A program made the position numbers and the translations under genes. Below, in pieces: positions 3,513 through 57,524 of a stretch of DNA of 64,000 nt. Source of the stretch: Bacteroidales bacterium (GTDB lineage Bacteria > Bacteroidota > Bacteroidia > Bacteroidales > UBA3824); assembly GCA_016293845.1 (NCBI GenBank), contig JAEDDH010000004.1:142084-206083 (forward strand), read 5' to 3'. Positions within the stretch are counted from its first letter, which is position 1. Every line of letters starts with the position of its first letter. Below the pieces are notes generated by a model that had not been told where the DNA came from, did no database searches, and saw nothing but the letters and a program-made list of their open reading frames with translations.

Positions 3513-3654
3513 AATATTGATATGAATGTTTTAAACAATGCGGCAAATTTAAACATTTAGGTTTGTATAATCAATTTTTGTAAAAATAATTTTTTGTTAA
3601 TATAATGTTGGCGCAATAAGTTTTAATTTGCAACCCACAAACATTAAGGTAATA

Positions 3655-5463
3655 ATGGGCATAGACAAGTGTACAAAGCGACGTTGGAAGATGAGACGGG
3701 CGTTCGGACGTTTTTACGAATGGCGTATCCGTCATATAGGCACTACACAGTACCTTACTATACTTAGCATAATAGTGGGCGCTATTGCTGGCATTACGGC
3801 AGCGGTGCTCAAAACCATCACCCACCATATCAGCGGATTCTTGTCGGGCACTATCAATCCATTGCTCGGTTTCGACGGAAATCTTATTTTTCCATTTGTG
3901 GGTATCGCCATTACCGTTGGTTTTATTAAGTTTATATTAAGACAAAACATCAGCGGCGGAATTCCCCGAGTGCTTTACTCCATATCAAAAGAGGAGGCGG
4001 TGATAAAGCCTCACAATATGTATTCGTCGGTGATAACTTCCGCAATAACAGTAGGTTTCGGAGGAAGCGCGGGATTGGAGGGACCTACAGTGGTAACAGG
4101 CGCGGCAATTGGCTCAAACATTGGTAAGTTTCTGCACCTCAATTTCAAACAGCGTCTTTTGATGCTGGGATGTGCCACTGCTGCGGCGTTGGCTGCCATA
4201 TTCAAAGCCCCGATTACGGGAGTGGTTTTTGTGATGGAGGTGTTTATGCTCGACCTTACAATGAGTTCGCTCGTACCTTTGCTAATATCCTCAGTAACAG
4301 GTGTTTTGATTTCGTATATGTTATCGGGCAGCAGTCCTGTCTATTTTTTCCGCATGACCGACGCTTTCACAAGCAACGATGTGCCATACTTTATACTCCT
4401 TGGATTGGTTTGCGCCTTTACATCTATCTATTTTACAAGAAGTTACATTTGGCTATCGCAACAATTCCGCAAAATCAACTCCACCGTTTGGAAACTTGTT
4501 TGGGGTGCGCTTCTGCTCACAGGAATGATTTATCTATTTCCGTCGCTCTTTGGCGAAGGTTACGACATAATCTCCAATAGTCTCAACGGCAACATCAAAC
4601 CCATCTACCGCAACAGCATTTTTTCATCGTGGCACAGCGGCTGGGGAACAGTTCTCTTGCTCACCGCCCTCACGCTTGCAAAACCCATTGCCACATCAGC
4701 CACATTTGCAGCCGGAGGCGTGGGAGGTATATTTGCACCCTCGTTGTTTGTGGGCGCAACCACGGGACTGCTACTCTCTACCGTGCTCACACGTCTGGGA
4801 TTTCAGGATATTCACGCAGCCAACTTTGCCCTTGTAGGAATGGCAGGAACAATTGCCGGAGTGCTTCACGCACCTCTCACAGCGGTTTTTCTAATTGCCG
4901 AACTCACAGGAGGTTACAAACTTTTTGTGCCGCTGATGATGGTGAGCGTGCTGTCGTATATTTTTACTAAGAAATTCATTACCAATTCGATATACACTTA
5001 TCAACTTGCCCGCCGCAACGAACTTCTCACTCATCACACCGACAAGAATGTGCTCAACCTTATGAAGTTAGACAAACTTATTGAGACCAATTTTGCCGTT
5101 GTTTTCCCCGAAGACACTTTGCGCGTGCTTGTGAAGGCAGTTGAAGACACCACCCGAAACATTTTTGCCGTTGTCAGCCGCACCGACAACACCTTTATTG
5201 GAATAATCAAGATGGACGACATCCGCAAACTGATGTTTCACCCCGAAAAATATGACCAAATATTTGTAAAAGACCTCTGTTTCCGACCCGAATACACCGT
5301 GCGCATCGACGAGAGTATGGATTCGGTAGCCACCAAATTCACCACCTCCGACAAGTTCAACATTGCCGTACTCGACGAAAACAACAAGTATATCGGCTTT
5401 GTATCCCGCGCCAAAGTATTCTCAACGTATAGGCGAATGAGCAAACAGTTGTCGGAAGATTAA
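3655..5463 (+). CDS. ClC-family chloride channel/antiporter with C-terminal CBS pair
   Basis: Multi-TM protein with ClC selectivity motifs (GGIPRV, GLEGP, GIFAPS) and a C-terminal ~140-aa CBS-like region. The ORF finder starts at TTG 3628; I place the start at the first ATG (3655), which is uncertain. Confidence 0.88.
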   Translation: MGIDKCTKRRWKMRRAFGRFYEWRIRHIGTTQYLTILSIIVGAIAGITAAVLKTITHHISGFLSGTINPLLGFDGNLIFPFVGIAITVGFIKFILRQNISGGIPRVLYSISKEEAVIKPHNMYSSVITSAITVGFGGSAGLEGPTVVTGAAIGSNIGKFLHLNFKQRLLMLGCATAAALAAIFKAPITGVVFVMEVFMLDLTMSSLVPLLISSVTGVLISYMLSGSSPVYFFRMTDAFTSNDVPYFILLGLVCAFTSIYFTRSYIWLSQQFRKINSTVWKLVWGALLLTGMIYLFPSLFGEGYDIISNSLNGNIKPIYRNSIFSSWHSGWGTVLLLTALTLAKPIATSATFAAGGVGGIFAPSLFVGATTGLLLSTVLTRLGFQDIHAANFALVGMAGTIAGVLHAPLTAVFLIAELTGGYKLFVPLMMVSVLSYIFTKKFITNSIYTYQLARRNELLTHHTDKNVLNLMKLDKLIETNFAVVFPEDTLRVLVKAVEDTTRNIFAVVSRTDNTFIGIIKMDDIRKLMFHPEKYDQIFVKDLCFRPEYTVRIDESMDSVATKFTTSDKFNIAVLDENNKYIGFVSRAKVFSTYRRMSKQLSED

Positions 5464-32600: not shown

Positions 32601-33286
32601 TGAAAAAAATATTTTTCTATATTATCATTGTAACGCTCAGTATACTACCAAATATTACAAAGGCGCAAACATTCGACTATCAGAACATTCTGAAGTTTGC
32701 CCACTATGTATATTGGCCGGAGCTCCAACAAGGCACAGGTCTTAGACTTGCCATATCTAAAAAACTTGTAGAACTACTCAGCGGCAAAATGTGGGTAGAA
32801 AGCGAAGAAGGCAAAGGCAGCACATTCTTCTTTACCCTTCCTTACGACCCCGAGCTCAACACAGCCGACAAATACGGAGCATCAGGCTCGTCGGACGATG
32901 CCGAAGTTACCCTCAATGGTAAAAAAATAATGGTGGCCGAAGACGAAGAAATAAACCGTATGCTAATGAACGAAATTCTTGCCGAAACAGGCGCAGAGAT
33001 AATTTGGGCAGAAGACGGCGGACAAGCTGTGGAAATAGCAAACAGCAGAACAGACATCGACCTGATACTCATGGATATAAAGAAGCCTGTGATGGACGGT
33101 TACGAAGCCACACGTGCCATTCGTGAGTTCAACAAAGATATTATTATTATAGCGCAAACCGCCTACGCCCTTAGCGACGAAAAAGAAAAAACCATTAAGG
33201 CAGGTTGCAACTACTATCTTACCAAACCGCTCAACATCAGCCTTTTGATGAAAGTGCTTGGCGGATTCTTAAAAAAGAAGAGTTGA
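32600..33286 (+). CDS. Chimeric ORF: signal peptide/YfiR(DUF4154)-like N-terminus joined to the last ~40 aa of an HATPase_c domain plus an intact receiver (REC) domain
   Basis: [23 protein letters not shown]...[15 protein letters not shown] looks like the start of a YfiR/DUF4154 protein. From about nt 32730 it continues as [38 protein letters not shown], the G2 box to the end of a histidine-kinase ATPase. REC follows (MVAEDEE...[13 protein letters not shown]...YLTKP). No HisKA, N-box or G1-box is present. Confidence 0.6.
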
Positions 33287-36200
33287 GCAAGACAGATATA
33301 TTTGTAGGACGCGAAAAAGAACTCCACCGTATGCACAACCTCTACGAGCAGGTGTGCAACGGTAAGGGGCAAATTGTGCTCATAGGTGGCAAATCGGGAT
33401 GCGGCAAATCGGCTTTGGCAAAAATGTTTGCACAGAAAACCGCCGCGGTTTCTATGTGCACCACTATATCGTTCAAATGCCGTTGTGCAAGCGAGGCATT
33501 ATCGTATGGTATGCTTTACCACACACTTACGCAGCATAAGCCATCCAAAGAGCAGCGCGACAGCTTTGCTAAGTATTCGCCCGACGAAGCTGCAGACTTT
33601 TTTTTCAAATATCTGCAAGATAGTTCGTCAGAGAATCCAACAATAATCATCGCCGACGATTTTCAACACTGCAATCCCGACATTTACAATATGATATACG
33701 CTCTTGCACAGCATATTGTAAGCAATAATTGCAAAATAATGGCTGTGGTGGCGTACAATATGGCAGATCAGGTTATCAAGGCAGACCCACTCATCAACCG
33801 CATCTCGCGCGACCTGTTTCCAATAAAAATAGGCAGCATCACCCAAGCATGGAAAACAGGAGGATTTTGCGAACTCGTTCCCGAGCCGTTGAAACTATCT
33901 GACACAGCCGACATGATATCCACAATGTTTACTGGCAACGAGTTTCCGTCAGACACTGCCAACATAATTCATTCTGTTACACAGGGCAATCCCGCATTTC
34001 TTACAGGTTTGCTCAAATATATGCAGCAAAACGGCGACATCAAGCAAATAGACGGCAGATGGATAATTGATAATCTGAACTTCTATTCAAACGCTAATCA
34101 TTTGCAAGACGTTTTGCCTAAGCCTATTGCACATTCAAAATACCGTTACACCGCCATCAAGGAAAACGGAATTGGCAATCCAAAAGAATTGTTAGACAAG
34201 ACGATAGCAGCAGTACAAAAGCCATCAATGCCCGAGGCTGTGAAACTCGCCGACAAAACTTGGAATGCTTTAGCTCATTACCGCTCGTCGGAAGCCGTTT
34301 GGGAATACCGCGCCACCTCATTACAAGCCAAATACCTTGCCCTATCATGGCTCGGATATCACAAAGAGGCTCTCGAATGTGGAACGGCATTGCTCGGCTG
34401 TTCAAAAAAATTAGACAACAAATACTACTTAGTGGCAGGCTATTACTTTGTAGGTCAAGAATATCTGTACCTTTCAGATCACGACAAGGCTATAAAATAC
34501 ATACAAAAAGCAATCGACTATCTTAAAGAAAACCCAAAACATCCCGCATTAGCCGACTGCTACTATGCTTTGGGCAAGGTGTACCTCACCCGAAACAACC
34601 ATACTTCTACAGACTATTTTTTGAATCTCGCGCTCAAAGGTTTCACCGAAAAAAAAGACGAAGACAAGCTTGCTCTGGTGAAAATAGACCTTGCCACGCA
34701 CAAACGTTCTGGCAAAGACAATGCAAGTGCATATTTGCTGCTCAAGGAGGTGATAGACTATTGCACCAAAGCCGTTAAGCCGCACATTCTTGCCAAGGCG
34801 TATATCAACCTCGGACTATCTTACGACAACGACAACCGTTTTGCCGAAGCAAAAAAATACTACACAGAGGCTCTCAGGCTATGTTTCCACACTGGCGACC
34901 GCATCAACCTTGCCAACTGCTACAACAATATGGGTCTGTCGAAAAACTCTCAGAGCAAATTTACAGAAGCGTTGGCATACTTTCACAAAGCATTGGAAAT
35001 CGACCGTATGCTTGGCAATACTGCCAAGATATCAATAAGTTACAACAACATAGGTCTTGCGCTGCTCAACAACGGCGACATCAACGGTGCCGAAAAATAT
35101 TTCAACGCCGCATTAGAAAATGATTCAAATGCGCCCAATAAGTATGGCATTGCATTAACATACAGCAATTTAGGTGCACTATATTCGCAAAAATCCGACA
35201 CCGAGAATGCTCTTCGTTACTACAAATTAGCCCTCAAAGAAGACCACGCCAACAACTATATTGAAGGAATGATAGCCGACTACAACGCTATTGGCAACAT
35301 TCATTACGGCAACGAAAATATAGAAGAAGCAATACAGTGCTTCAACAAATCGCTTGAACTGTCGCAGCAAAGCAACGACGAAGCTGCTCTTGCTGCTGTA
35401 TGCAACAATATTGGAAACATATATTTTGCTCAAAAAGACAACGAAAACGCCACACAGTATTACACCGAGGCACTCAACATAAACACTCGCATCGGCTACA
35501 ACGCCGCCGCTGCGCTCAACTACTCTAACCTCGCCAACATCTACGAAGAGCAAAACAATGCCGCACGTGCCGAAACCTATTACGACCAAGCCATTGAATT
35601 ATATCACAAAGCGAAACTCAAGGATCAAGAAGCCTACAATCTGAGTTCGCTTGCTATGCTCTATTATCGCAACAACAAATACAACAAAGCCAAAGTTACA
35701 TACCTTCACGCCGCCAAACTATACAAAAACATCAACAACACAAAGGAATACATCCGCATGATTACCTTTGCCGGCGACTCTATGCGTATGCTATCCGAAT
35801 ACAAAGAAGCTCAAAAACTTGTAGAAGAAGCAATAGAGTTGAGCCGAAATTTAGGCGACACCCACTCCGAGGCTCTTGCCGATGGCACTATGGCTTGTTT
35901 GTATACCGAAATGTACGAATATGAATGTGCCGTAGATTATTACAAAAAGGCAATAGAACTATACCGAAACGACAACGACCTTGAAATGTACGCTGATATG
36001 CTGTCGGCACTTGCCTACCTACACAACGACAACGGAAACACTGACGAGGCTCTGTTATGTCAGCATCAGGTAATCGACACCTACCGACAAATTGGCAACA
36101 CCGAACTGTTAGCGGCTTCGTATGCCGAAATGGGCTTGTTTTACGAAGAAAACAACTACGAACAGTCGGCGGAAAACTACATATTGTCGGCACAACATTA

Positions 36201-37692
36201 CAACATAGCCGACAAACCCGGACGACAAGCCGACGCACTTATACACGCTGCCAACGCGCTTATGCACACACAAAACCGTGGCAAAGGGTACGAATGTCTC
36301 ACCACGGCTGTGGATATTCTGCAAAAGATGAAGCAAGAGCACGGCGAAGAAGTGTCAGAATCCGACATCAACGACAAACTTGTTCAGGCATTCACCGCCA
36401 TTGCCGACTACTTTTTTGAAATCAAAGATTATTTTGCGGCGGTGGCAAATTACACCACAGCATTAGATATCAGCTCAAAGACAGAATCGCACACACGCAC
36501 CGCCTACATCTGCAACAATATCGGATATACTTACGATACAATAGGCTACTTTAATCGCGCTCTCGAATACTACAACAAGGCGTGTCAAGAATACGACCAA
36601 GAAGAATTTAAAAGCGAAGGTCTTTTCAACAACCTTAAAAACGTGGCTCTTATGTACGAGCGTTTAGGCAACGACCAAAAAACTACAGAGTATTACCGCA
36701 AGGCTTTCGACACTTTTGAAAACAAATTTCACATAGATATTTCCGCACTTGCTGGCTGCGCTCTTTCGGCTGCCAACGCTATTTTTAATTCAAATGGCGA
36801 CATCGAAACTGCCACACAATACTATCAAAAGGCACTTCACCTTTACAAAAAAGACGACAACAACAAAGGAATCATCAATACATTGCTTAGCAGAGCGATT
36901 TCCAACGCTATTGGAAATCGCAACAGTGAAGCCTTATCGCTTGCAAGTCAGATTATGCGCATATTTGACATTGCTTCTGACATCGAAACCAAATGCAATG
37001 CACTCCGCGCTGTGGCTCAGATACATATCAAACTCGGAAACTTAAACGATGCGGTAAAATATTATCAACAGGCATTAGACATACTGTTTGCCCGTGACCT
37101 TTGGGATGCAGCCGCACACCAATATTATAACATGGCAACGCTTTTTGCCGAACACTGTGGCAAGATGGCGGCTACTATCGATTTCAACGGTAGCACGCTA
37201 ACTATCTACAATTTCATTTCTAAATTGATGTCAAATGCTGTGGAACTCGCCAAAACCGAAAAAGACATCGAACTTGAAATACAGGTGCTTTCGTCGCAAG
37301 CAAGGTATAATGTGCAGTGCAACGAAAAAAATCTCGGACTTGAATATATGACCAAGGCAGTGGAAGTGGCAGGTGGTACTGGCGACCCCGAAACCGAAGC
37401 CGCTACCCTATTAGAAATGGCCGACTTTCTTATGCACTACTATAGACACTTTGACGGAGCCGAGCAATGCATCAACCGTGCTATTTATAATTTAGAACCT
37501 TTAGGAAATTATCATATTAACTTAGCGTTGGCCCGTGTACTTAAATTCGTAGCGCTTGTTTTTCAACAAAAATACGACGAGGCTGGCAGTATATTCAAAT
37601 TATATTCACAACTATTTGCAGGTTACATAAAAAACATACCCATGCTACTACCTGCACTACAAGAGTTTCACAACAATTACAGCCCTAAATAG
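33283..37692 (+). CDS. STAND-like P-loop NTPase (AAA_16-type) followed by ~1200 aa of TPR repeats
   Basis: FVGREKEL...[18 protein letters not shown] (Walker A) and IIIADDFQH (Walker B) are present. TPR-type repeats then run to the C-terminus. There is no ATG upstream of the FVGRE motif. Candidate starts are TTG 33283 (TTGA overlap with the REC stop) and TTG 33205, so the start is uncertain. Confidence 0.8.
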
Positions 37693-38309: not shown

Positions 38310-40952
38310 TTAAATAGCACTTCGCGACACAGTTTCGGTGGCGGTTCCGTTTGCAAAAATAATGTCTACATCCTCGTTGAAATTGCCAATGGCTATCATA
38401 TTGCCCACGTTGCTCATAGTTATAAGTTTTGGGAAATACATCATAAAAATCTCGCGACCTTTTTCGGATGTAGAAGAATTGTAAAATCTAAGTTTGCGGT
38501 CGGCACCGAGCACCGAAAAGAATTGCGAATCGCTGCTAATCTTGATGTCGATAACTTCGCAGTCGATATTAAATTCGGCAACAGGTATCGGTATCTGAGG
38601 ATTATACACACACACACGACCATCTTTGAATCCATAAATAAGCCTTGTGGCATCAGAGTTTACCGACATCGACTTGATTTCTGACGAGCTTTCGATGCCG
38701 AGTTTAAAAATCTCCGATAGAGCGTTGATACGGTAAATCTTCAAGTTGTGAAAATAGTCGTAGCCAGCCACATACTGCATATCACGCGAAACCGACATCA
38801 GCCTAAAGTCGGCAATAGCCTTGTTGATCACCTTGGTTCTGATGTCAACCTTATAGAGCGAAAAGTTGTCGCTTACAAAGAGGGTCTCGTTGTTAAACGG
38901 GTGGAAAAACATCTTTTTGATAGTGCCGGTGTAGTTTATAATATCGGAGAAAAGGCTGAAACCACCTGTAGATACGTTCATTACACGCAAGAAACTCTGT
39001 CCGCCCACAGCCATAAATTTATTGTTGCGGCTAAATGCCATAGCAGTGGCGTTAACATCTTGTTTATGAATAGTTTCCCACGATGAAGTATCAAATACAC
39101 GAAGTTTTCGGCTCTGATCGGCAATAGCGATATACTCATCGTTGAAACTGAAGCATATATCTGTAACACCCTCATGCGCTATCTTGATATTTCGTGTATT
39201 GAATCCTTTAAACTGATTGTCAGCGTTTTTGCCCTCGTCTTGTTTTTGTTTTATAATCATAACACGGGCAGTTTGATTGCCAAGCGAAGCCGACTGTTGC
39301 AAATATTCGTTGTAGCCCGATTTGTCGCCAATTTTTTCGTACACTCCGGCAAGGGTAAGCAATACGTCTTCGGGATGGGCAATCTTGTGCGAAATTGCAT
39401 ATTTGAAATACTCAATTGCCTTGGGATAACGGCTAAGCATAAGGCTTGCCACAGCCGCATTGTAATAAGCGTCTGGATTATCGGGATTCAATTTGATAAC
39501 GGTTTCGCAGTCTTCGATGGCGAGTTCCAACTTGCCGAGATTGCCGTATGCAGTGCTTCGACGGAGATAAGCAAGTTGGAAAGTTGGGTCGATGGCAATC
39601 ACCTTGTTGCAACAGTCGAGCAAAAAATCCCATTTTTCAAGATTGTGGCATTCGTTCATCTTAGCCACAAGTTCCACAATATTTTTTTTCTCCACAGAAC
39701 GGGGATCAGAAAACACAGGTTCGGGAGCAGGTTGCGGCTCAGGCTCAGAAGCGGGTTCTGGAGTAGGCTCAGGAGCGGGTTGAGGCTCAAGTTCGGGTTC
39801 AGGATCGGGCAACGGCTCGTCGATAGTGTTCATAAAGTGGGGATTTGGATTCTCTCCGGAGTCGGTAATTTCGGGGGTTTCTTGCTGGATTTCCATTTCT
39901 GATGATGTTTCTTCTATTGTATCGATTTCTTCTTCGGTTTTTGAATCTTCATCTTGATTTGTGATTTCTTCGGGCTCTGGTTCCTCCATGGGTTCAGGAA
40001 TTCCGAGATAGTTTTCGCGGTAACGCTCTTGGCGGAGTTGTAAGCAGCGGTCGTAGGTCCACATATCCAAAGGCTGAATATTGTCCACTGTATTGAACTT
40101 TTGCAGCACGGTGTCGTCGCCAATAATTTCGTAAATAGTCTGAGCAATATATTTGCAGCAACTAATAGGCTGTTTTACAATTTGTTCCTCGGCAAAACGG
40201 ACAATAAACCATCCAGCCTTTTCAAAAAAAGTATCGTGTTCTTGCTTAGAAAACTCGCAGCTATCCTTCTTCACAAATGTAGTGGGTTCGCCCGACTCCA
40301 TATCATAAGGAGAATCAATTTCTACATCAATATAAAGTTTTTTGTCGGAAACCGAAACAATATAAGTAGGCACAAAACCTTTACTATCAAGACTTTGCAA
40401 AATAGTGTAATTAATAAGCACCTTGTCGGGAAAATATTCGTTGAGTATTTTGTAAAAATCATCGTTGCACCCAACGCCACATTCGTCGGCAGGTTTCAGT
40501 TGACAATTGGTAAACTGCAAAGCGTCAGCAACTTTAACACTACGAAAACGGGCAAGAGAAGCACGGTCGTTGTTTTGACGGTTGGCCTCATCAATGGCGG
40601 CAAGTTCGTCGTTGTAACCACGCATCAGGTATTCGTAGTTGGCAAGCGCCTTTTGATTCGAAAGTTTTTTCAACCGGTTGAGAATGCAGTCGTATACAGC
40701 CAAACCAACAGAAGCCACCAAAAAAACAGTGAGCAAAGCTGTTAGCCAAGTGAAAGCAGGCAGAGGGCAAAACTTGTATCCTGCCACTAATCCTACAGCC
40801 ACTGCGGATAATACAAATCCTGTGTAACGCATTTTGGCAAGCGTTGGACGTTGGGGCATTATGGGTGAAACGGGCACGGGGATACGACTGTCCTGCGCCT
40901 CTAAAATATTACGCGGAATTATACTTGCTGGATATTGAGTGTAATTGTACAT
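38310..40952 (-). CDS. Large membrane-anchored protein: 2 TM, restriction-endonuclease-fold-like domain, Pro/Glu-rich linker, TPR repeats, WD40-like beta-propeller
   Basis: Two TM helices lie near residues 45-95. LYIDVEIDSPY...DTFFEKAGWFIVRFAEEQI fits the DUF559/DUF2726-type pattern (hhhEhDG...D..L...GW.hhRF). The PEPEPELEPQPAPEPTPEPASEPEPQPAPEP linker is encoded at about 39700-39830. TPR-like repeats follow (AYLRRSTAYGNLGKLELAIEDCETVIKLNPDNPDAYYN). About 290 C-terminal residues have WD40-like periodicity. Domain calls are by eye. Confidence 0.6.
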   Translation of the reverse strand: MYNYTQYPASIIPRNILEAQDSRIPVPVSPIMPQRPTLAKMRYTGFVLSAVAVGLVAGYKFCPLPAFTWLTALLTVFLVASVGLAVYDCILNRLKKLSNQKALANYEYLMRGYNDELAAIDEANRQNNDRASLARFRSVKVADALQFTNCQLKPADECGVGCNDDFYKILNEYFPDKVLINYTILQSLDSKGFVPTYIVSVSDKKLYIDVEIDSPYDMESGEPTTFVKKDSCEFSKQEHDTFFEKAGWFIVRFAEEQIVKQPISCCKYIAQTIYEIIGDDTVLQKFNTVDNIQPLDMWTYDRCLQLRQERYRENYLGIPEPMEEPEPEEITNQDEDSKTEEEIDTIEETSSEMEIQQETPEITDSGENPNPHFMNTIDEPLPDPEPELEPQPAPEPTPEPASEPEPQPAPEPVFSDPRSVEKKNIVELVAKMNECHNLEKWDFLLDCCNKVIAIDPTFQLAYLRRSTAYGNLGKLELAIEDCETVIKLNPDNPDAYYNAAVASLMLSRYPKAIEYFKYAISHKIAHPEDVLLTLAGVYEKIGDKSGYNEYLQQSASLGNQTARVMIIKQKQDEGKNADNQFKGFNTRNIKIAHEGVTDICFSFNDEYIAIADQSRKLRVFDTSSWETIHKQDVNATAMAFSRNNKFMAVGGQSFLRVMNVSTGGFSLFSDIINYTGTIKKMFFHPFNNETLFVSDNFSLYKVDIRTKVINKAIADFRLMSVSRDMQYVAGYDYFHNLKIYRINALSEIFKLGIESSSEIKSMSVNSDATRLIYGFKDGRVCVYNPQIPIPVAEFNIDCEVIDIKISSDSQFFSVLGADRKLRFYNSSTSEKGREIFMMYFPKLITMSNVGNMIAIGNFNEDVDIIFANGTATETVSRSAI

Positions 40953-43662: not shown

Positions 43663-44253
43663 ATGTACATTTGGCAAGAAAAAGCATTTCCAAACTTTGA
43701 ATGGAACAAAGAGAACGTATTACAGAGGCTTTCTGATGCTAAATTCGAAATTGGAAAACTTGCGGGAATGATGGGTGCGTTGGGTTCTGAAATAAAAAAA
43801 TCAGCCGCACTTGATTCGATCACAGCAGATATTCTGATGTCGTCGGCAATAGAGGGCATTATGCTCAATCGCGACGACGTTCGCTCGTCGGTGGCTTGGC
43901 AATTGGGTATCGACAAAGCGGGAGTGCCAGTGTCAAACAGATATATCGAAGGTGTAGTAGAAGTAATGTTTGATGCAGTGAGCAATTACAACGTTCCGTT
44001 AACAAGCAACCGATTGTTCAAATGGCATACATTACTTTTCCCTTCGGTAAAAAGTTACGAAAAAATCACCGTTGGCGCTTACCGCAATAGCAGTCAAACG
44101 ATGCAAGTGGTTTCGGGACGTTACGGCAGCGAAAAAATCCACTACGAAGCGCCATCGTCGGCACAAGTGCCTGAAATGATGGATGTTTTATTAAAATATA
44201 TAGAAACTGCCAAAGTAGACGGCATATTAAAAGCCGCGATAGCGCACCTCTGA
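43663..44253 (+). pseudogene. Truncated Fic/DOC-family gene (DUF4172 N-terminal region only; catalytic Fic motif missing)
   Basis: MYIWQEKAFPNFEWNKE...SSAIEGI...AAIAHL* matches the N-terminal half of DUF4172-Fic proteins. It stops exactly where HPFxDGNGR normally follows (AIAHLWF..HPF). Downstream sequence is antisense to the rluA-like gene, so the 3' half has been deleted. Confidence 0.7.
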
Positions 44254-45190: not shown

Positions 45191-45442
45191 TTATTTAATT
45201 TTATTTATTTTACCTCCCTTTTGAGCAATCTCCCAAAGTTCAAGGAGTTCTTGTTGGTGTTCGTCTATAAACTGATTTACAATAGCAATAGTTTTAGAAT
45301 GAGCCTTACCTTCAACAATACGGTCTTGAATAGTAATAGTAAACTCATCATCGGCACCGCTACGTATATGAATATGCGGTGGATTATGGTCAAAACCATA
45401 GATATAAATCAAAATACCGTTGATAATAAAAATCGAGCCCAT
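45191..45442 (-). CDS. DUF4160 domain protein
   Basis: 83 aa containing the characteristic IYGFDHNPPHIHI motif. Confidence 0.75.
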   Translation of the reverse strand: MGSIFIINGILIYIYGFDHNPPHIHIRSGADDEFTITIQDRIVEGKAHSKTIAIVNQFIDEHQQELLELWEIAQKGGKINKIK

Positions 45443-45570
45443 ATTTTAACTTTAAAACTATTGGCAAAGGTACAAATATTATTTTACAGACGACAAATAA
45501 ACGATGAGAATATTGCAACAATAAGAGAAAGCTTCAACAAAAAATGGACACATAGAGAGGTTGAATTGCG

Positions 45571-45612
45571 AAAAAAAGTCCTTCGCATAGTATTTGTTGC
45601 GTTGCGAAGGAC
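45571..45612 (-). terminator. Intrinsic terminator after the 45653..48242 operon
   Basis: On the minus strand, GTCCTTCGCA-15 nt loop-TGCGAAGGAC is followed by TTTTTTT. It lies about 40 nt downstream of the stop at 45653. Confidence 0.6.
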
Positions 45613-45652
45613 GGTATTTAAAAATAAAACATTCAAATAGGAATATTTAAGA

Positions 45653-46192
45653 TTAATTAATAATCACAAAAGACACATCATCTACTCCAATAGGATCAGA
45701 TGAAACATTCAATTTTCCACCGATTGTTTTTCTATAAACATCTGTTTCTACGTCCCAAGTAAAAGAATCTCCATTTTGGCATTTTAAATATACATACATT
45801 TTCCAATACCTCTTAGATGGATTAACAATATCACATTTAAAATAATAATCATACGTTCTATTGCTTTCGAAAAGAGCAACATTAGTGTTTTCTTTTATTA
45901 TTTCAGCATTTTCAATTGTTACTCCTTTTTTATCAAATTCCCGTTGTTCATCTAATAATTCCATTTGTGCATTAAAACGTACCTTATCTATAATTGCTTT
46001 AATTCCAAAACCCACCACAATGAGAACAACTACTGCTATTATTACCTTAATAGGTTTTGTCATTCCTTTTCTCTTAGGATTGTTGCTATTAGAGGATTCA
46101 ACATCGTGATTAATTTGCGAAAGGTTACATCCACACGCAGAACAGAATTATGCGCCGGCTTCGTTAGCGGCATTACATTTTGGACAATTCAT
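45653..46192 (-). pseudogene. Zinc-ribbon + single-TM protein gene interrupted by an in-frame TAA
   Basis: ATG at 46192 gives MNCPKCNAANEAGA, then TAA (46148-46150). The same frame continues FCSACGCNLSQINHDVESSNSNNPKRKGMTKPIKVIIAVVVLIVV... into ORF 45653..46063. The stop sits where CPxC...GAKFCxxCG zinc ribbons have Lys (AAA/AAG). Confidence 0.6.
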
Positions 46193-48725: not shown

Positions 48726-49094
48726 TTACCCCAATCCCAAAACAACTTCGGGAGAAATGTCAAGTTTCTGACTTATTACTTTTCCAAAAGCAAGAGTTGG
48801 CTCGGTTTTGCCGGTAATATATTCCTCGGTTTTTGATGTAGAAATACCGAGAAACGATGCAAGTTTTTCCGTTGTTATACCAGTTTCATACATACGCAGT
48901 TTTATGAGGTCGAAAAGCGATGGTTCGCCCAAAGAATAATGGACATCCTCGTAATCGGCGACAAGATTGCCCAACATCTCAAACTCAATATAGTTAGGGT
49001 CGGTTTTAGGTGTTGAGTCATTAACCAACGGAAGTAAAGATTCGATGCGCTGCATTAATGCATTATATTGTTCTTCGTTTTCTATTTTTGTCAT
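48726..49094 (-). CDS. higA: HigA-type antitoxin (XRE-family HTH)
   Basis: MTKIENEEQYNALMQRIESLL... is an HigA-type N-terminal helix, and the C-terminal HTH is ITTEKLASFLGISTSKTEEYITGK. Start set at ATG 49094. Confidence 0.75.
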   Translation of the reverse strand: MTKIENEEQYNALMQRIESLLPLVNDSTPKTDPNYIEFEMLGNLVADYEDVHYSLGEPSLFDLIKLRMYETGITTEKLASFLGISTSKTEEYITGKTEPTLAFGKVISQKLDISPEVVLGLG

Positions 49095-49104
49095 AACTAT
49101 TATG

Positions 49105-49401
49105 TTAAATTGTTGAACAATCAGTAATTTTATCATATTCGGCGTGTGTACCTACAAATCTAATCAATACAAATTGAGGAGTAAATTGTATCACAACTAT
49201 CAATCTAAAATCATTACCTTTAATGTTAAAAACATAATGCTGGTTACCAACATTGTCTGCGGTGGAAAAATCTTTTTTTACATCAGCAAAATTTTTCCAT
49301 TGGGCTTTTTGAACTTTTTTCGCCCATCGTTGAAATGCAGTTTTTGACTCAGGATGCTGTTCAACGTAGATTTTGATTGTTTTTAAAGATATAATCCTCA
49401 T
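49105..49401 (-). CDS. higB: HigB-type toxin (RelE/ParE superfamily mRNA interferase)
   Basis: MRIISLKTIKIYVEQHPESKTAFQRWAKKV...GNDFRLIVVIQFTPQFVLIRFVGTHAEYDKI is the typical HigB pattern. The toxin lies upstream of the antitoxin, as in higBA. Confidence 0.8.
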   Translation of the reverse strand: MRIISLKTIKIYVEQHPESKTAFQRWAKKVQKAQWKNFADVKKDFSTADNVGNQHYVFNIKGNDFRLIVVIQFTPQFVLIRFVGTHAEYDKITDCSTI

Positions 49402-49432
49402 TATCAATATTTTGTTTATTAAATATCACATT

Positions 49433-51577: not shown

Positions 51578-51656
51578 AATATTTAGGTCAGTACAAAGCG
51601 ACTGAATTTTTTTACAAATCTATAAAAAAATAAAATTAAATGAAGTTTTTTTTAAT

Positions 51657-51664
51657 TACATTTG
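51657..51664 (+). promoter_or_regulatory. Bacteroidota -7 promoter box (TACATTTG)
   Basis: Matches TAnnTTTG, 20 nt upstream of ATG 51685. Confidence 0.4.
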
Positions 51665-51684
51665 CAAAAAGAATTTGATTAACT

Positions 51685-53274
51685 ATGGGAATTTACGTAA
51701 ATCCGGGCAACGAACTTATGCAAGACGCTCTCAATTCAATGATTTATGTTGATAAATCATTAATAGTAAGAGAGTTGAATAAGATGATTGGTACACGTCA
51801 AAAGTATGTCTGCGTGTCGCGTCCGAGGCGTTTCGGCAAATCGATGGCTAAGGCATTACTTATGGCTTACTATTCCCGAGGCTGTAAGTCGCACCGTCAA
51901 TTCAAGAACTTGAAAATAGCCCAGGAACCGAGTTATAGAAAATATCTCAACAAATTGAATGTCATTGCGATAGATTGCGTTGACTTTTCATCGAACCTGT
52001 TTAAAACAAGCAAGGATAGTTTTGTAAACAGGATGACTGAAAAGATTAAGAGGGAATTTGTTGAAGAATTTTCTGATGTTGATTTCTCTGATTGTCAAAG
52101 TATTGCTGATTGCATCAAAATCGTTTATAAAAAAACAGGTGTAAAGTTTGTAATACTCATTGATGAATACGATTTGCCGATACGCATCGAACAGCCTGAA
52201 TCTCTTTTTAAAGAGTATCTTAATTTGTTGCTTTCATTGTTCAAAAGCGAGGCTACAAGTCAGGCGACGGCTCTTGCCTACATTACTGGTATATTGCCGA
52301 TTGTTCGCGATAGGGTAGAGAGCAAACTTAACAATTTTAGGGAATATACATTTCTCGAACCGGCTAATTTTGCCGAGTTTACAGGGTTTACAGAACAAGA
52401 GGTGCAGGGACTTTGCGACAAATACAATGTCAATTATCAGGAATGTCTCAATTGGTACGACGGTTACGATGTAGAAGGCATTAACATTTGCAATCCTCAC
52501 GCAATAGTCGAGAGTATTACATATAAAAAGTTAAAGCCATTTTGGTCTAATACAGGTACTTACGAAACCATTGCGCCATACATAAAAGGCAACTATCAAG
52601 GCATCAAAGACGACCTGATTAAAATGCTTTCAGGCGGCAGTGTTCCGGTTAACATAACTTCATTTGCCAACACGCTTTCCGACATAACTTCTAAGGACAA
52701 ATTGTTTACGTACCTGATGCACACGGGTTTTCTCGCCTACAATCTCGATGAAAAAACCTGTCGTATGCCAAACCTCGAAACTCAGGACATTTGGGGCAAC
52801 GCTTTGGAAAATACCGAGTCGTTCAAAGTTTTGGGCGAGTTCATCAAAAACTCGGAACGTCTTCTCAAAGCCACACTTGCAAAAGATGGCGAAACTGTTG
52901 CAAATGCCTTGGAAGTGCTTCACGGCGAGGTAACGTCGCATTTGAGTTACAACCACGAACAATCGTTGCAGTCGGCGATTGACATTGCGTATATGCACGC
53001 AAAGACATATTATCGGATTTTCAACGAAGTTCCGACGGGCAACGGCGTTGCAGACGTGGTTTTGGTGCCGCTGTATCCCAATTGGCCCGCAATAATCATC
53101 GAACTAAAACGCAACTCGTCCACCGAGTCCGCCCTCAACCAAATCAGCGAAAAGAAATATTCTGCGCGGCTCAACGATTATAACGGACGCCTACTTTTCG
53201 TCGGAATTAACTACGATGAAAAGAAAAAGCACACTTGCGAGATAGTGGAGGTGGAAAAGAATGGTGGCTGTTAG
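51685..53274 (+). CDS. AAA-ATPase_like + PD-(D/E)XK (DUF1703-type) protein
   Basis: IYVDKSLIVRELNK...VCVSRPRRFGKSMA is the hallmark N-terminus of the predicted AAA-ATPase family common in Bacteroides. The C-terminal ADVVLVP...IIIELKRN has a D...ExK nuclease-like motif. Confidence 0.8.
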   Translation: MGIYVNPGNELMQDALNSMIYVDKSLIVRELNKMIGTRQKYVCVSRPRRFGKSMAKALLMAYYSRGCKSHRQFKNLKIAQEPSYRKYLNKLNVIAIDCVDFSSNLFKTSKDSFVNRMTEKIKREFVEEFSDVDFSDCQSIADCIKIVYKKTGVKFVILIDEYDLPIRIEQPESLFKEYLNLLLSLFKSEATSQATALAYITGILPIVRDRVESKLNNFREYTFLEPANFAEFTGFTEQEVQGLCDKYNVNYQECLNWYDGYDVEGINICNPHAIVESITYKKLKPFWSNTGTYETIAPYIKGNYQGIKDDLIKMLSGGSVPVNITSFANTLSDITSKDKLFTYLMHTGFLAYNLDEKTCRMPNLETQDIWGNALENTESFKVLGEFIKNSERLLKATLAKDGETVANALEVLHGEVTSHLSYNHEQSLQSAIDIAYMHAKTYYRIFNEVPTGNGVADVVLVPLYPNWPAIIIELKRNSSTESALNQISEKKYSARLNDYNGRLLFVGINYDEKKKHTCEIVEVEKNGGC

Positions 53275-53347: not shown

Positions 53348-54679
53348 TCATATTTTTAATAAATTAGAATTGCTTTGTTTGAATATGTCGTTTATTTGTG
53401 CATTACTAAATCCAGTCAATGATAAAACACAGCAAATTAGTAAAATTCTTAATTTGTTAGTAAGGTGGTATAGTTCATAACCCACTAAAACAATTTCACT
53501 ACTCTTTGGTGCATAAAAATGGGAGTAATAGTCCCTTGAATTAACGCAGGCTCGAATACATATATTAGCATTTTGGATTATTTCAATATTTGAAAATTCA
53601 AACAGTAGTTCGCCTATTTTATCTTTTAACGCTACTCTATTCTTGGCGTTCAAATTATTATTACGCTTATATGTATCTTCTCTAAATCGGCTCCAAAAGC
53701 CATCAAGTGCTTGAATAACAATTAAAAAATCAACGCTACTAAATGAACGTTTTCGTTCCAAACTATCAATTAAGTGTGTTCTAATTGGAGTAATTTCTTT
53801 TGGAGCGTTGTACCATTCTTTTAGAATCTGGGAATAGTAATTTTGTATAGTAGAGTAACTGTACAAAAAGTCAATAGAATTTATTTCTTTTGCCTTTATC
53901 TCTTTGAAATTTCTGCGAGATTGGACTATGTAAATTGGTTTATAGCGTTTTACATTATCTACATCTTGATATAGATTACTGTCGAACACTTTAATACAAG
54001 AACTTTTTACAATATTTGATGTTGCAACAGAAAGAAATTGTTCAAACATTAAAATATCTGATAACAATTCGCTAATTGAACAAGGCGAATTTTTCGAAAT
54101 ATCAATGGATACAAATTGCTTTATGTTGATTTCTTTTTGGCTTTTAGAGTACGAAATTTCTTGTAAAAGAGAAATGCTTGTTGTATCATTTATTGCAGTC
54201 TTGTTCAAAAGACATTTTTCTTTGCCGTTGGTTTGAAATGAAATATTAGTATTTTCATTTCCTGTTGAAAAAGATATTGCATTGTTAGGGCACCAATCGG
54301 ACAATTCAGGTATGATAGCATTAGCCCAATAGTTACACTTTTCGTCTAATCCCTTAATATGCTTACCAATAATCATATATTTGCAGATGTATTCTACAAT
54401 AGCAAAACCCGCTGTCCAATTGAAATTTGCTTTTTTAAAGACCTGTAATAATGTTATATCTTTTGAGTCAGAAGTGCGACCATATATAACAATGTCGTTT
54501 GTCTTTTTATCAAAAAACTGTTCCAATGGATGTCCAAAACTTCCGATGAGTTTTAACACAATTTTATCTTCTGGATAATATGTAAGTATTCCAGCAACAA
54601 GATTATCAGGCTGTTCTGGCAAGTACCAATAACCTTCGAATACTAATTGAGAACTCAAATTCAAAGCATCCATAATCAA
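53348..54679 (-). CDS. ApeA-like protein: ApeA_NTD1-like N-terminus and C-terminal HEPN (R-x4-H) motif
   Basis: The N-terminus FEGYWYLPEQPDNLVAGILTYYPEDKIVLKLIGSFG fits the ApeA N-terminal pattern (G.WWLP.....V.G.L......I.LEL.G.F). The C-terminal part has NSRDYYSH (R-x4-H). The gene is conspicuously AT-rich compared with its flanks. Family assignment is from memory. Confidence 0.5.
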   Translation of the reverse strand: MIMDALNLSSQLVFEGYWYLPEQPDNLVAGILTYYPEDKIVLKLIGSFGHPLEQFFDKKTNDIVIYGRTSDSKDITLLQVFKKANFNWTAGFAIVEYICKYMIIGKHIKGLDEKCNYWANAIIPELSDWCPNNAISFSTGNENTNISFQTNGKEKCLLNKTAINDTTSISLLQEISYSKSQKEINIKQFVSIDISKNSPCSISELLSDILMFEQFLSVATSNIVKSSCIKVFDSNLYQDVDNVKRYKPIYIVQSRRNFKEIKAKEINSIDFLYSYSTIQNYYSQILKEWYNAPKEITPIRTHLIDSLERKRSFSSVDFLIVIQALDGFWSRFREDTYKRNNNLNAKNRVALKDKIGELLFEFSNIEIIQNANICIRACVNSRDYYSHFYAPKSSEIVLVGYELYHLTNKLRILLICCVLSLTGFSNAQINDIFKQSNSNLLKI

Positions 54680-54923
54680 ATATTAAATTTTAATAAAAAA
54701 CACAAAGGTACAAATAATACGAGAGACATGCAAGTATTAATGATAATAATCCTGCATGGTCTCATATATAAAGATTACAAATTGTCATCAAATTTCATCC
54801 AATGTTCCGTTTATCTCGATACCTTGAATTTGGAATGCACTTATCCTTCTTGTGAAAATGCTGAAAACGGAATCAGAATAAACAAGCATAGGATTCATAT
54901 TAATTTCATTATATTTGTAAGTT

Positions 54924-55511
54924 TTAGAAGTTATCTCTAATATTATTTTCTTGATTAGATGCTGTTTTGACATTTTCATAAAGGTCTTTCAGACCCTCAG
55001 AGAATCGACTTTTTGCTGATTTCTTTTTGATACCCTTCAACTCTCTATCCAAATATCCGACCTCATGTTCTATTCGCAGTTTAATAACATTACCGTTGAT
55101 TATCTGTTGGATTTGGTCTTCGGTTATGTTGTAACTTGGATAAACATAGTAATTTGTTCCATATTTTGTTACCTTATACTCATAGTCGGCAGGTCCTATT
55201 TCTTTTGCGTTTTCAAGTTCGATTATTGTACCATCATCAAATTTAAGCAATAACTTACGACCGATGCCAAATTGAAGTTTCGTTTCATTTAGACACAATT
55301 CTAACTGCCAAAGATATAGATTGTTCTTGGTGATTGCGTATCCAACTGAAAAAGATGCGGCAGAAGACCATTCTGTGTAAAGATTTTTCCAATACGAGAG
55401 CACAATTCGTGTGCTGTCTTCAACAGAATACTTATCAATCCTAACATTTTGGGAGTAACCAAAAATTGGAAAGAGTAGTACACAAAAAACAATTGTCAGT
55501 ATTTTTTTCAT
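54924..55511 (-). CDS. Exported hypothetical protein (~195 aa)
   Basis: Signal peptide MKKILTIVFCVLLFPIFGYSQ from ATG 55511. The ORF finder extends it to TTG 55541. I recognise no domain. Confidence 0.55.
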   Translation of the reverse strand: MKKILTIVFCVLLFPIFGYSQNVRIDKYSVEDSTRIVLSYWKNLYTEWSSAASFSVGYAITKNNLYLWQLELCLNETKLQFGIGRKLLLKFDDGTIIELENAKEIGPADYEYKVTKYGTNYYVYPSYNITEDQIQQIINGNVIKLRIEHEVGYLDRELKGIKKKSAKSRFSEGLKDLYENVKTASNQENNIRDNF

Positions 55512-55585
55512 TTTATTTCTATTTTTCCGCGAACTTCCCAAACACGGTGTTTATTTTTCTAATTAACTACAAGACCTATATAAAC

Positions 55586-55870
55586 AAAAAACGTGGGATT
55601 TTTACAGTCGCTCGTTCCACTTGTTGAGGCTCTTGCATTGCCCATCCTGTCAGAAACGAGCAACACTCAAAGCCCACGCATTATGTATATACAACAAACC
55701 CCAAGAGTTTGAGATGATACATATTCGAGGGCATTACCGTGTTGCTTTGTACTTGACAGGATTTGGAATTTGCAAGATTTCAACAAGTCAAAAACAAAGC
55801 GTAAGTAACGCCTTTATTTTATAAGTCTGTTCTCATCCTACTTCTGCCCGAAGGCTTTTTGGATTTTAAA
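55586..55870 (-). ncRNA. Unclassified ~285-nt structured RNA or leader, copy A
   Basis: On the minus strand the order is a -7 box, ~285 nt with no conserved ORF, then a T6 run. It aligns end to end with 62251..62534, with compensatory substitutions in several helices (see findings). Confidence 0.55.
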
Positions 55871-55875
55871 CACAG

Positions 55876-55883: not shown

Positions 55884-55927
55884 CATCATTTTTCAACACA
55901 ACGTATTTCATTTTCTCTTTTTTTATC

Positions 55928-55935
55928 TATATTTG
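55928..55935 (+). promoter_or_regulatory. Bacteroidota -7 promoter box (TATATTTG)
   Basis: Lies 20 nt upstream of ATG 55956. Confidence 0.4.
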
Positions 55936-55955
55936 CAAAAAATCTTTTAGAAAGT

Positions 55956-57524
55956 ATGAAAGAATTCAACACCACAGGCATTTGCTACCCCGATGAGCAT
56001 TATATGGTGGACATCAGCACCCGACTCGCCGACATAGAACGGAGAGTTGCCAAAGGAGAGTACATCACCATCAACCGCGGTCGTCAGTATGGAAAAACTA
56101 CTACTTTGTTTCATCTGGCCAAAAAGTTGATGGAGAAATACGTGGTGTTTTCTATTAGTTTTGAAGATTACAACCAAAAGGATTTCAATTCAATAGAATC
56201 TATTGCGTTTACTTTGTTGGAAACATTGCAGACGGCTATTGACGACTTGCCTGAACTTAATGTTGATCAATCTGTCAAAGACTTGATTGTAGACACATTA
56301 ACCGCCAATCAAGAGAAAAGGGAAATTATAAAAAGCGTTTTTGCAAAACTTTTAACCGATATCTGCCGAAATTCTTCAAAACCTATCGTCCTGATAATCG
56401 ACGAAGTGGACAATGCAAGCAACTACGAATCGTTTATCGAATTGCTAAGGATGTTGCGAAGCAAGTATCTTAAACGTGCCACAGTTCCAACATTCCAATC
56501 GGTAATTCTCGCTGGTGTGTACGACATTAAGAATCTCAAACTCAAAGTTCGCCCCGACAGCGACCACCAATACAATTCGCCGTGGAATATCGCCGTGGCG
56601 TTCACTTCCGATATGTCGCTACTATCTGAGGGTATCAACCAAATGCTGCAAGAATACGAAAACGACCACCACACAGGGATGGACATTTCGGAAATAACTC
56701 AATTAATCACCGACTACACTTCGGGCTATCCATTTTTCGTATCAAGGGTATGCCAACTTATTGACGAACAGAATCTTTCGTGGAGCAAAGAGGGTGTTAT
56801 CAATGCAGTAAAACTATTGCTAAGAGAAAAAAACACATTCTTCGATGATTTGCTGAAAAAATTAGACGACTATGTAGAAATCAACAAATTACTGAAAGAT
56901 ATTTTGCTTTATGGCAATTCGGTTTCGTTCAATATCGACAACAAGTTTCTCAACCTTGCGGCTATGTTCAATTATATAAAGGAAGAAAACGGTAAAGTTA
57001 AGATTTTTAACCGAATAATTGAAACGCGCCTTTACAACAAGTTTATGAGCGATGAGGAAATTACAAATACCTTATACAAACAGGGAGATATCGACCGCAG
57101 CCAATTTATTGAAGGCAAATCTCTCAAAATGGACAAAATTCTCGAAAAATTCGCAGTTCATTTCAACGATATTTACGGAAACAACGAACTGACTTTCAAG
57201 GAGGAAGAAGGACGGCGTTTCTTTATGCTCTACATCCGTCCGATAATCAACGGCGTGGGCAACTATTACATCGAGGCACAAACCCGCGACCGCTCTCGCA
57301 CCGATATGATTATCGACTATTACGGTCAACAATTCATCATTGAGATGAAGATATGGCGCGGCGACTCTTACAACGAACGCGGCGAAAAGCAACTATTTGA
57401 ATACCTCGACTTTTACCACACCAACAAGGGCTATCTTCTGAGTTTCTGTTTCAACAAAAAATCCAAACCCAAGGCTAAGGCTATTACGCTGGGAGATAAG
57501 GAGATTGTTGAAGTGGTGGTGTAA
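55956..57524 (+). CDS. P-loop ATPase + C-terminal PD-(D/E)XK-like nuclease domain protein
   Basis: Walker A is INRGRQYGKTTTL and Walker B is LIIDEVDN. The C-terminal TDMIIDYYGQQFIIEMKIWRG has a D...ExK motif. The architecture is analogous to 51685..53274, but the sequence is clearly different. Confidence 0.7.
   Translation: MKEFNTTGICYPDEHYMVDISTRLADIERRVAKGEYITINRGRQYGKTTTLFHLAKKLMEKYVVFSISFEDYNQKDFNSIESIAFTLLETLQTAIDDLPELNVDQSVKDLIVDTLTANQEKREIIKSVFAKLLTDICRNSSKPIVLIIDEVDNASNYESFIELLRMLRSKYLKRATVPTFQSVILAGVYDIKNLKLKVRPDSDHQYNSPWNIAVAFTSDMSLLSEGINQMLQEYENDHHTGMDISEITQLITDYTSGYPFFVSRVCQLIDEQNLSWSKEGVINAVKLLLREKNTFFDDLLKKLDDYVEINKLLKDILLYGNSVSFNIDNKFLNLAAMFNYIKEENGKVKIFNRIIETRLYNKFMSDEEITNTLYKQGDIDRSQFIEGKSLKMDKILEKFAVHFNDIYGNNELTFKEEEGRRFFMLYIRPIINGVGNYYIEAQTRDRSRTDMIIDYYGQQFIIEMKIWRGDSYNERGEKQLFEYLDFYHTNKGYLLSFCFNKKSKPKAKAITLGDKEIVEVVV

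Follow-up and report, generated by a model that had tools for sequence, protein, structure and literature searches.

A family of HEPN proteins designated ApeA/BMEI1217 was described by Anantharaman et al. in 2013 (PMC3710099). Its N-terminal region, ApeA-NTD1, spans ~300 amino acids (aa), was characterized as "mostly beta strands", and contains conserved aromatic residues; embedding of the family in restriction-modification (R-M) systems was reported in the same paper. Embedding is also the basis of the PADLOC PDC set, which was assembled by "guilt-by-embedding" in BREX, DISARM and Type I R-M systems and is presented by its authors as 145 untested candidates. Experimental tests of ApeA as a defence system concern Ec1ApeA of Gao et al. 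2020, described in two 2026 preprints (bioRxiv 10.64898/2026.01.26.701840 and 10.64898/2026.03.20.713152). According to these preprints, Ec1ApeA-type proteins are ~600 aa long and "predominantly alpha-helical", with catenin-like, PafA-like and split-HEPN domains and an N-terminal, Mid and HEPN organization; ApeA assembles into decamers or dodecamers and cuts tRNAs in the anticodon loop, and Ec2ApeA is activated when 5′-phosphorylated deoxydinucleotides occupy a pocket lying between its N-terminal and HEPN domains. Ec1ApeA also cleaves the genomes of single-stranded RNA phages without killing the cell, and the outcome of E. coli ApeA activity is given as abortive with DNA phage and non-abortive with RNA phage. 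Here we analyse a 64,000-nucleotide stretch of a Bacteroidales genome (contig JAEDDH010000004.1, positions 142,084 to 206,083; hereafter the window) that carries a gene of the ApeA_NTD1/HEPN_Apea family, which an initial annotation, made from the DNA alone, had read as a candidate single-gene, ApeA-like abortive-infection defence.

The open reading frame (ORF) delimited in that annotation, 53348..54679 on the minus strand, exists and, read from its TTG, encodes 443 aa. Where metagenome contigs contain this locus in identical form, independent gene calls begin at an ATG at 54673, two codons downstream of the TTG, to give 441 aa, and the N-termini of homologs line up with the same codon. Because both lines of evidence point to the ATG, the coding sequence was taken as 53348..54673, and these alignments make 54673 most likely the true start. 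Residue numbers refer to the 441-aa form unless the 443-aa form is named. The features of the gene are as follows.

53348..54673, minus strand: ApeA-like coding sequence (ApeA_NTD1 + HEPN_Apea), 441 aa, stop codon at 53348-53350.
53813..54637, minus strand: ApeA_NTD1 domain (PF18862), aa 13-287, translation checked; presumed sensor/regulatory domain.
53399..53725, minus strand: HEPN_Apea domain (PF18739), aa 317-425, translation checked; predicted RNase effector.
53519..53536, minus strand: Rx4H motif RDYYSH, R380 to H385 (R382 and H387 in the 443-aa numbering); predicted catalytic.
54703..54710, minus strand: promoter-like box TACCTTTG, read from sequence, 29 nucleotides (nt) upstream of the ATG and matching the Bacteroidetes -7 consensus TAnnTTTG.

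Both domains are recognized by Pfam profiles far above their cut-offs. ApeA_NTD1 (PF18862) matches with E=1.1e-32 and 114.1 bits (cut-off 25.5) over profile positions 3-271 of 271, and HEPN_Apea (PF18739) with E=2.8e-15 and 57.4 bits (cut-off 24.4) over positions 1-135 of 136. The PDC-S58 models of PADLOC also match the protein (PDLC05048, E=1.3e-53; PDLC05046, E=2.4e-40), an assignment made at the level of hidden Markov model matches to a stand-alone gene. The PADLOC Cas13-ApeA HEPN models match at E=3.8e-18, and a comparison with NCBIfam gave no family match. The N-terminal sequence pattern from which the ApeA assignment had originally been made is present as GYWYLPEQPDNLVAGILTYYPEDKIVLKLIGSFG (aa 14-47), except that one spacer has 7 residues where 6 had been written. 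A word-indexed search returned 156 relatives, every one of which (156/156) contains both ApeA_NTD1 and HEPN_Apea, and a profile run exhaustively against 1.84 billion cluster representatives matched 5,274 proteins at E<=1e-3, of which 436 reached E<=1e-30. Both Pfam domains are kept in full-length relatives with 19-21% identity that Bacillus subtilis, Burkholderia latens and Synechococcus elongatus carry on plasmids. By these sequence comparisons the window gene is a further member of a known, computationally defined family, PF18862+PF18739 or PDC-S58. Within the HEPN region, a segment of ~25-35 aa (alignment columns ~389-415, around aa 345-350) is absent in the Bacteroidota clade and present in the Bacillus, Burkholderia and Synechococcus relatives.

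The R-x4-H signature that had been noted near the C-terminus (SRDYYSH) is present, and RDYYSH is the sole Rx4-6H in the protein. Because an Rx4H arises in 14% of shuffles of the same protein, the bare motif is weak evidence, and it is invariance among homologs that carries weight. Among 119 aligned sequences, the most distant of them 23% identical, no column other than G65, R380 and H385 is invariant; the motif R and H are thus found in 119/119 family members. R380, Y382 and H385 (RxYxxH) are invariant as well in the Bacillus, Burkholderia and Synechococcus relatives with the full architecture. At each of four aromatic positions, W16, W127, F213 and W287, conservation across the 119 sequences is 90% or higher. 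The initial annotation had named two findings that would count against it, a lack of profile support for ApeA_NTD or HEPN and a lack of conservation of the R-x4-H residues; neither was encountered, as the profiles match and the R and H are conserved within the alignment and across phyla.

An AlphaFold2 model of the single chain, computed from the 119-sequence alignment, has a mean predicted local distance difference test score (pLDDT) of 93.4 and a predicted template modelling score (pTM) of 0.91. Residues 10-251 form a beta-rich domain with ~14 strands and one long helix (200-218), residues 273-433 are helical, and RDYYSH lies at the end of helix 373-385. The succession of a beta-rich and a helical part fits the 2013 description of ApeA-NTD1 followed by an Apea HEPN domain (PMC3710099). 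In the predicted structure, the Rx4-6H motif is on a helix inside an all-alpha domain, which is the arrangement looked for in a HEPN protein. Foldseek comparison of the model with the PDB and with viral predicted structures gave nothing at E<=1e-3, a weak negative with the two-domain model as the query. Sequence searches of the PDB with the protein and with a 24-sequence profile returned nothing relevant (best match SmiF, E=0.33); the ApeA electron cryomicroscopy entries 9HX* lie outside the PDB sequences and folds searched. The only similarities to recur in the Foldseek output, for the N-terminal domain, were weak local ones to phage tail-tube/terminator-like beta-sandwich folds, namely Mu 9ki1_4 (probability 0.94, E=0.035) and a viral tail tube protein with a template modelling (TM) score of 0.52 on the target and E=0.22. 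None of these matches is significant, and all are a lead rather than evidence.

The gene is intact and has a foreign base composition. As had been noted, it is markedly more AT-rich than its surroundings: its guanine plus cytosine (GC) content is 0.303 and its GC content at third codon positions (GC3) 0.25, against a GC content of 0.423 +/- 0.038 for the 36 window genes of at least 150 aa, among which it has the lowest value (z=-3.17). The ratio of nonsynonymous to synonymous substitution rates (dN/dS) is 0.11-0.31 in comparisons with 4 related copies, values that indicate purifying selection. TAnnTTTG is the -7 consensus of Bacteroidetes promoters, as established for Bacteroides, and the TACCTTTG box is a putative promoter of the gene's own.

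We compared the locus with those of four close relatives, designated L135, L133, L134 and L021. Gene order in L135, whose ApeA-like protein is 92% identical in aa sequence, is as in the window. L133 (86%) has an additional 178-aa gene and, in place of the first flanking ATPase gene, a HepT/MntA-like pair (3114-3871) in which a nucleotidyltransferase gene is joined to a gene for a 155-aa HEPN protein with the motif RNLTSH. In L134 (80%), window positions 54641-55875 are missing, and the ApeA-like gene directly adjoins a homolog of the second flanking ATPase. L021 (78%) contains a split ApeA-like gene (311 + 109 aa) and, at the position of the first ATPase, an MNT-like nucleotidyltransferase gene (1818-2087), which is all that is visible there before the contig ends; this contig is labelled cov_0.83, and the split may be an assembly error. 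In the close-relative loci, nucleotide homology to the window stops 25-50 nt beyond the ApeA-like stop codon. Since the neighbours differ among these loci, the ApeA-like gene is the constant element of a changing locus. Between the window and L135, positions 53490-54340 (the central and HEPN-proximal part) are the most divergent, with 90-94% nt identity against 97-100% for the rest; in this one pairwise comparison the dip could reflect faster evolution or allelic exchange.

The gene had been described as flanked by two ATPase-nuclease genes, and as consistent with a small defence islet. In both flanking proteins a P-loop ATPase is indeed joined to a PD-(D/E)XK nuclease, although in the second the nuclease is sub-threshold and another gene intervenes before it. 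The flank at 51685..53274 matches PF09820 and PF08011 above cut-off, the "DUF1703" architecture, which is paralog-rich in Bacteroidota and of unknown function; the flank at 55956..57524 has AAA_35/AAA_14 matches and only a sub-threshold PDDEXK_3 match. PADLOC returned nothing for one of these genes and a marginal match (E about 1e-3) for the other, the two proteins are only 22% identical to each other, and neither recurs beside relatives. For these reasons the flanks are not islet evidence by themselves, and the idea that these DUF1703-type paralogs, for which no role in defence is known, are defence genes is not supported. What stands of the islet proposal is that relatives swap neighbours around a constant ApeA-like gene. 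The two flanking genes share a 41-nt upstream segment, 76% identical (51647-51687 and 55918-55958), that ends at each ATG and holds a TAnnTTTGC promoter-like box (repeat D3), which suggests that they are under common regulation. The intervening gene is the following.

54924..55541, minus strand: 205-aa gene upstream of the ApeA-like gene, GC 0.337, with a signal-peptide-like N-terminus and no Pfam, PADLOC or NCBIfam match.

It is present in L135, L133 and L021 and was considered as a partner of the ApeA-like gene, but it is absent in L134 and in the more distant loci and was therefore rejected. The flanks of the AT-rich block, examined for direct repeats and att-like scars, yielded short, low-identity repeats only, and no tRNA genes or Rfam families were found within the window. 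Exact-protein look-ups returned the same gene arrangement only. To look for an insertion, synteny was compared outwards from the neighbouring Tex gene; the closest metagenome relative, with 85% identity, came from a short contig covering the wrong side, and the others were at most 60% identical.

The wider genomic context was assessed in 28 loci from species-representative genomes, almost all of them Bacteroidota, by scanning 2 ORFs per side (104 ORFs). No conserved partner gene emerged, as no family occurred in more than 4-5 of the 28 loci. The list of neighbours is dominated by conflict genes: Eco57I (in 4/28 loci), N6_Mtase, TaqI_C and MmeI (Type IIG R-M), RhuM and DUF1016/YhcG, with AAA_15/AAA_21 (AbiL-like), Fic, Schlafen/AlbA_2, putAbiC and integrases as further families. 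Several loci (L023, L026, L027, L028 and L014-L016) have a gene for a 1222-1503 aa protein that is followed, after 15-30 nt and on the same strand, by the ApeA-like gene; in L014-L016 this protein is a fused R-M enzyme with N6_Mtase, Eco57I and Methylase_S. Metagenome contexts include an AbiL-like ATPase (AAA_15/21) with RloB, AbiEi_2, a KAP nucleoside triphosphatase (NTPase), a fused R-M enzyme ending 15 nt ahead of the ApeA-like gene, and an integrase-bearing element. In B. subtilis SH1 (L136 5953-8917, on the 'plasmid' NZ_CP064819.1) an SPbeta-like element has a full-length copy directly upstream of its aimR/aimP module, the arbitrium system of lysis-lysogeny; in Burkholderia the gene is flanked by an integrase and IS66 elements, and the Synechococcus copy is near BrnT/BrnA. 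The distribution is patchy across phyla, on plasmids and islands. No phage-borne copies were found in INPHARED (3 queries) or in IMG/VR.

On balance, we lean towards reading the gene as a self-contained, two-module immune-type protein, a sensor joined to a HEPN RNase, that acts against phage or mobile elements and was horizontally acquired. In this proposal, the beta-rich ApeA_NTD1 would sense a signal and presumably hold the RNase off, and the effector would be the fused C-terminal HEPN domain with R380/H385 of the Rx4H motif as its predicted catalytic centre. Two copies may pair, by analogy with other HEPN enzymes, to build a composite, metal-independent RNase site. An infection-associated cue would then lead to the cutting of RNA, either host tRNA or mRNA or the RNA of the invader, and replication of the phage or mobile element would stop. 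The gene itself was acquired horizontally and occupies a small, strain-variable locus, where it would work with no dedicated partner gene. RNase activity, dimerisation, the trigger, the RNA target, the anti-phage effect and an abortive outcome are all steps that we infer. The single-gene character proposed at the outset agrees with the PDC-S58 match, with the lack of a conserved partner gene, and with the defence and mobile contexts of relatives. E. coli ApeA offers a precedent for combining a HEPN RNase and a separate sensing pocket in one protein, although as an analogy and not as evidence for the PF18862/PF18739 family.

Several observations weigh against this proposal. The protein has no detectable homology to the validated ApeA, and the mechanism is drawn by analogy only. 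No experimental test of the PF18862+PF18739/PDC-S58 family was found in the searchable literature, where PDC-S58 is mentioned solely as predicted by PADLOC for Streptococcus thermophilus ST55, outside the systems tested there. Among the immediate neighbours in the window, PADLOC recognized no defence genes. Foldseek searches of the PDB and viral structures gave the HEPN assignment no structural match independent of the sequence profiles. Finally, presence/absence polymorphism of the ApeA-like gene was not demonstrated, the organism being sparsely sampled.

Three other explanations were weighed, each of which we judge less likely than a sensor-HEPN defence protein. The one that survives best holds that the gene is a selfish toxin or addiction element, in which a HEPN toxin, autoinhibited or restrained by an unrecognized antitoxin, stabilises a variable island or competes with mobile elements. 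HEPN toxins are common in toxin-antitoxin (TA) systems, and relatives of the gene are found on plasmids and integrative elements and beside TA modules, namely the HepT/MntA-like pair of L133, the MNT-like nucleotidyltransferase of L021 and BrnT/BrnA in Synechococcus; in the window, a HigB toxin gene lies 4 kb away. The TA pairs that adjoin relatives are, however, complete by themselves, and no small antitoxin-like gene is conserved next to the ApeA-like gene across the 28 loci. A 441-aa, two-domain form with a large sensor-like domain is moreover typical of single-protein defence sensors and not of minimal TA toxins, and we regard the selfish-toxin explanation as unlikely.

A second possibility is that the protein serves as an accessory of R-M systems, a PrrC/RloC-style backup RNase that fires when R-M is inhibited, and that it has been orphaned in the window. 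No R-M gene adjoins it there or in the closest relatives. The window gene retains a promoter-like box of its own, and purifying selection acts on it in the absence of an R-M partner. The arrangement 15-30 nt downstream of a 1222-1503 aa enzyme in L014-L016, L023 and L026-L028, together with the Type IIG matches among the pooled neighbours, does favour such a role, as do the R-M embedding reported by Anantharaman et al. (PMC3710099) and the embedding of PDC candidates in R-M, BREX and DISARM. Since R-M neighbours are confined to a minority of loci (Eco57I in 4/28), we consider this role decidedly improbable as an account of the window gene. That the gene has no role in conflict, being a housekeeping RNA-processing enzyme or a decaying remnant, is scarcely credible: some HEPN proteins do act in RNA processing (PMC3710099) and the L021 copy is split into 311 + 109 aa, possibly by an assembly error, but the foreign composition, the patchy cross-phylum spread on plasmids and islands, the variable neighbours, the intact ORF, the invariant catalytic residues and a dN/dS well below 1 all speak against it.

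Within the preferred sensor-HEPN reading, a more specific and rather doubtful possibility is that ApeA_NTD1 is an unrecognized sensor fold that detects an infection cue and switches on the HEPN domain, so that the protein would constitute a distinct single-protein immune system, mechanistically independent of E. coli-type ApeA. The suggestion of an unrecognized fold rests on the lack of a significant match in the PDB or among viral predicted structures. If it is true, the family of 5,274 representative clusters (E<=1e-3) would be a distinct single-protein immune system that shares its name with E. coli-type ApeA. In any case, the annotation of the window gene as ApeA_NTD1/HEPN_Apea (PDC-S58) is secure, with defence as its likely role, and this large, cross-phylum family is a reasonable target in the search for a new sensor-HEPN system, including in gut and rumen Bacteroidota, where few defence systems have been tested.

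Elsewhere in the window, a HigB-type toxin gene is found at 49105..49407 on the minus strand (PF09907, E=5.6e-32), followed in the position of a HigA antitoxin by a gene for 122-136 aa (48726..49136, minus strand) with no Pfam match; the pair (48726-49407) lies between the Tex gene and an AT-rich stretch, 4 kb from the ApeA-like gene. A second strongly AT-rich patch at 45221-46063 (GC 0.29-0.33, z down to -3.6) contains 2 small, convergent ORFs, which encode 139 and 136 aa and match nothing in Pfam, and is possibly another acquired cassette. The gene at 43663-44253 (plus strand) encodes a 196-aa protein with DUF4172 and a Fic domain match that stops two-thirds of the way through the profile (positions 1-68 of 93), and may be a truncated Fic/Doc-type gene. 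Further away, 33205-37692 (plus strand) encodes a protein of 1495 aa that combines an AAA_16 (STAND-like) NTPase at its N-terminus with a long array of TPRs, adjoined by a gene for an 880-aa TPR and WD40 protein (38310-40952, minus strand); their AAA_16/TPR and TPR/WD40 architecture resembles that of signal-transducing or NLR-like NTPases.

Comparison with known systems places the protein closest to the family defined by Pfam. With the minimal HEPN toxins of HepT/MntA systems it has the HEPN fold and the Rx4-6H motif in common. HepT is ~130-155 aa long and requires an adjacent MNT antitoxin, whereas the window protein has an N-terminal domain of about 255 aa and no adjacent MNT gene is present in the window; the MNT genes beside relatives belong to a separate pair, the HepT-like partner being present in L133. 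PrrC and RloC carry an N-terminal ABC ATPase (PMC3710099). They resemble the present family in that they are HEPN-type RNase genes found in or next to R-M operons, as are some relatives of the window gene, and differ from the window protein in that a Pfam scan detected no ATPase domain in the latter.

For comparison with the validated defence system, the full Ec1ApeA gene was taken from an E. coli genome by means of 5′ sequence given in a supplement, and its product was put through the same tests as the window protein. Like the window gene, Ec1ApeA is a single gene with a C-terminal HEPN domain and one Rx4-6H, and is found in mobile or variable regions; in E. coli it adjoins a MobQ relaxase and Tra genes. 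As published, its N-terminal region senses the signal and its HEPN RNase executes the response. The two proteins differ in length (601 aa for Ec1ApeA, 441 aa for the window protein), in motif (RNKITH and RDYYSH, respectively) and in PADLOC model: Ec1ApeA matches only the ApeA model PDLC02157, with 1389 bits, whereas the window protein falls under PDC-S58 and has no match to PDLC02157 at E<=1. Conversely, neither PF18862 nor PF18739 matches Ec1ApeA or any of 17 relatives (18 family members in all) at E<=1. As published, Ec1ApeA is mostly alpha-helical; the N-terminal part of the window protein is beta-rich in the AlphaFold2 model, and the N-terminal halves clearly differ. Alignment of the window-family profile with Ec1ApeA by hhalign gave a probability of 0.27%, and alignment with an 18-sequence profile of the Ec1ApeA family gave 0.22%, with the aligned stretch outside the catalytic site. 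On three defining features of the validated system, its PADLOC model, detectable homology, and size with helical architecture, the window protein, as judged from sequence and predicted model, lies outside it. The HEPN cores are very divergent, and a remote homology of the catalytic domains may exist. Bm1ApeA, which appears to be the "distant 467-aa minimal homolog" of one preprint, without BLAST similarity to Ec1ApeA, is reported there to protect against DNA phages; a search with its first 133 residues returned short fragments only. A Vibrio panuliri protein that is 57% identical to Ec1ApeA is named 'Apea-like HEPN domain-containing protein' in UniRef and has no PF18739 match at E<=1, so that the UniRef link to Apea was not reproduced and the annotation is inconsistent between sources.

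Taken together, these comparisons argue that Pfam and the defence literature use "ApeA" for proteins which, with current models, are not detectably one family. The designation 'ApeA-like' that the gene had received is apt in the Pfam and Anantharaman-2013 sense, and does not extend to detectable kinship with the validated protein. Because the two are not detectably related, results on tRNA cleavage and abortive infection are not simply transferable; decamer rings, the deoxydinucleotide pocket and cleavage of tRNA or phage RNA have been shown for the E. coli type only, and the findings on Ec1ApeA and Ec2ApeA (anticodon cleavage, deoxydinucleotide activation, decamers, RNA-phage cleavage) should not be copied onto PF18862/PF18739 genes. 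Members of the ApeA_NTD1+HEPN_Apea (PDC-S58) family are ~440-470 aa long and occur as lone genes with ties to R-M systems and defence islands. Apart from having no R-M neighbour in the window, the gene studied here shows no essential difference from that family, with which it shares both domains, the beta-rich N-terminal domain, the conserved aromatic residues and the Rx4H motif.

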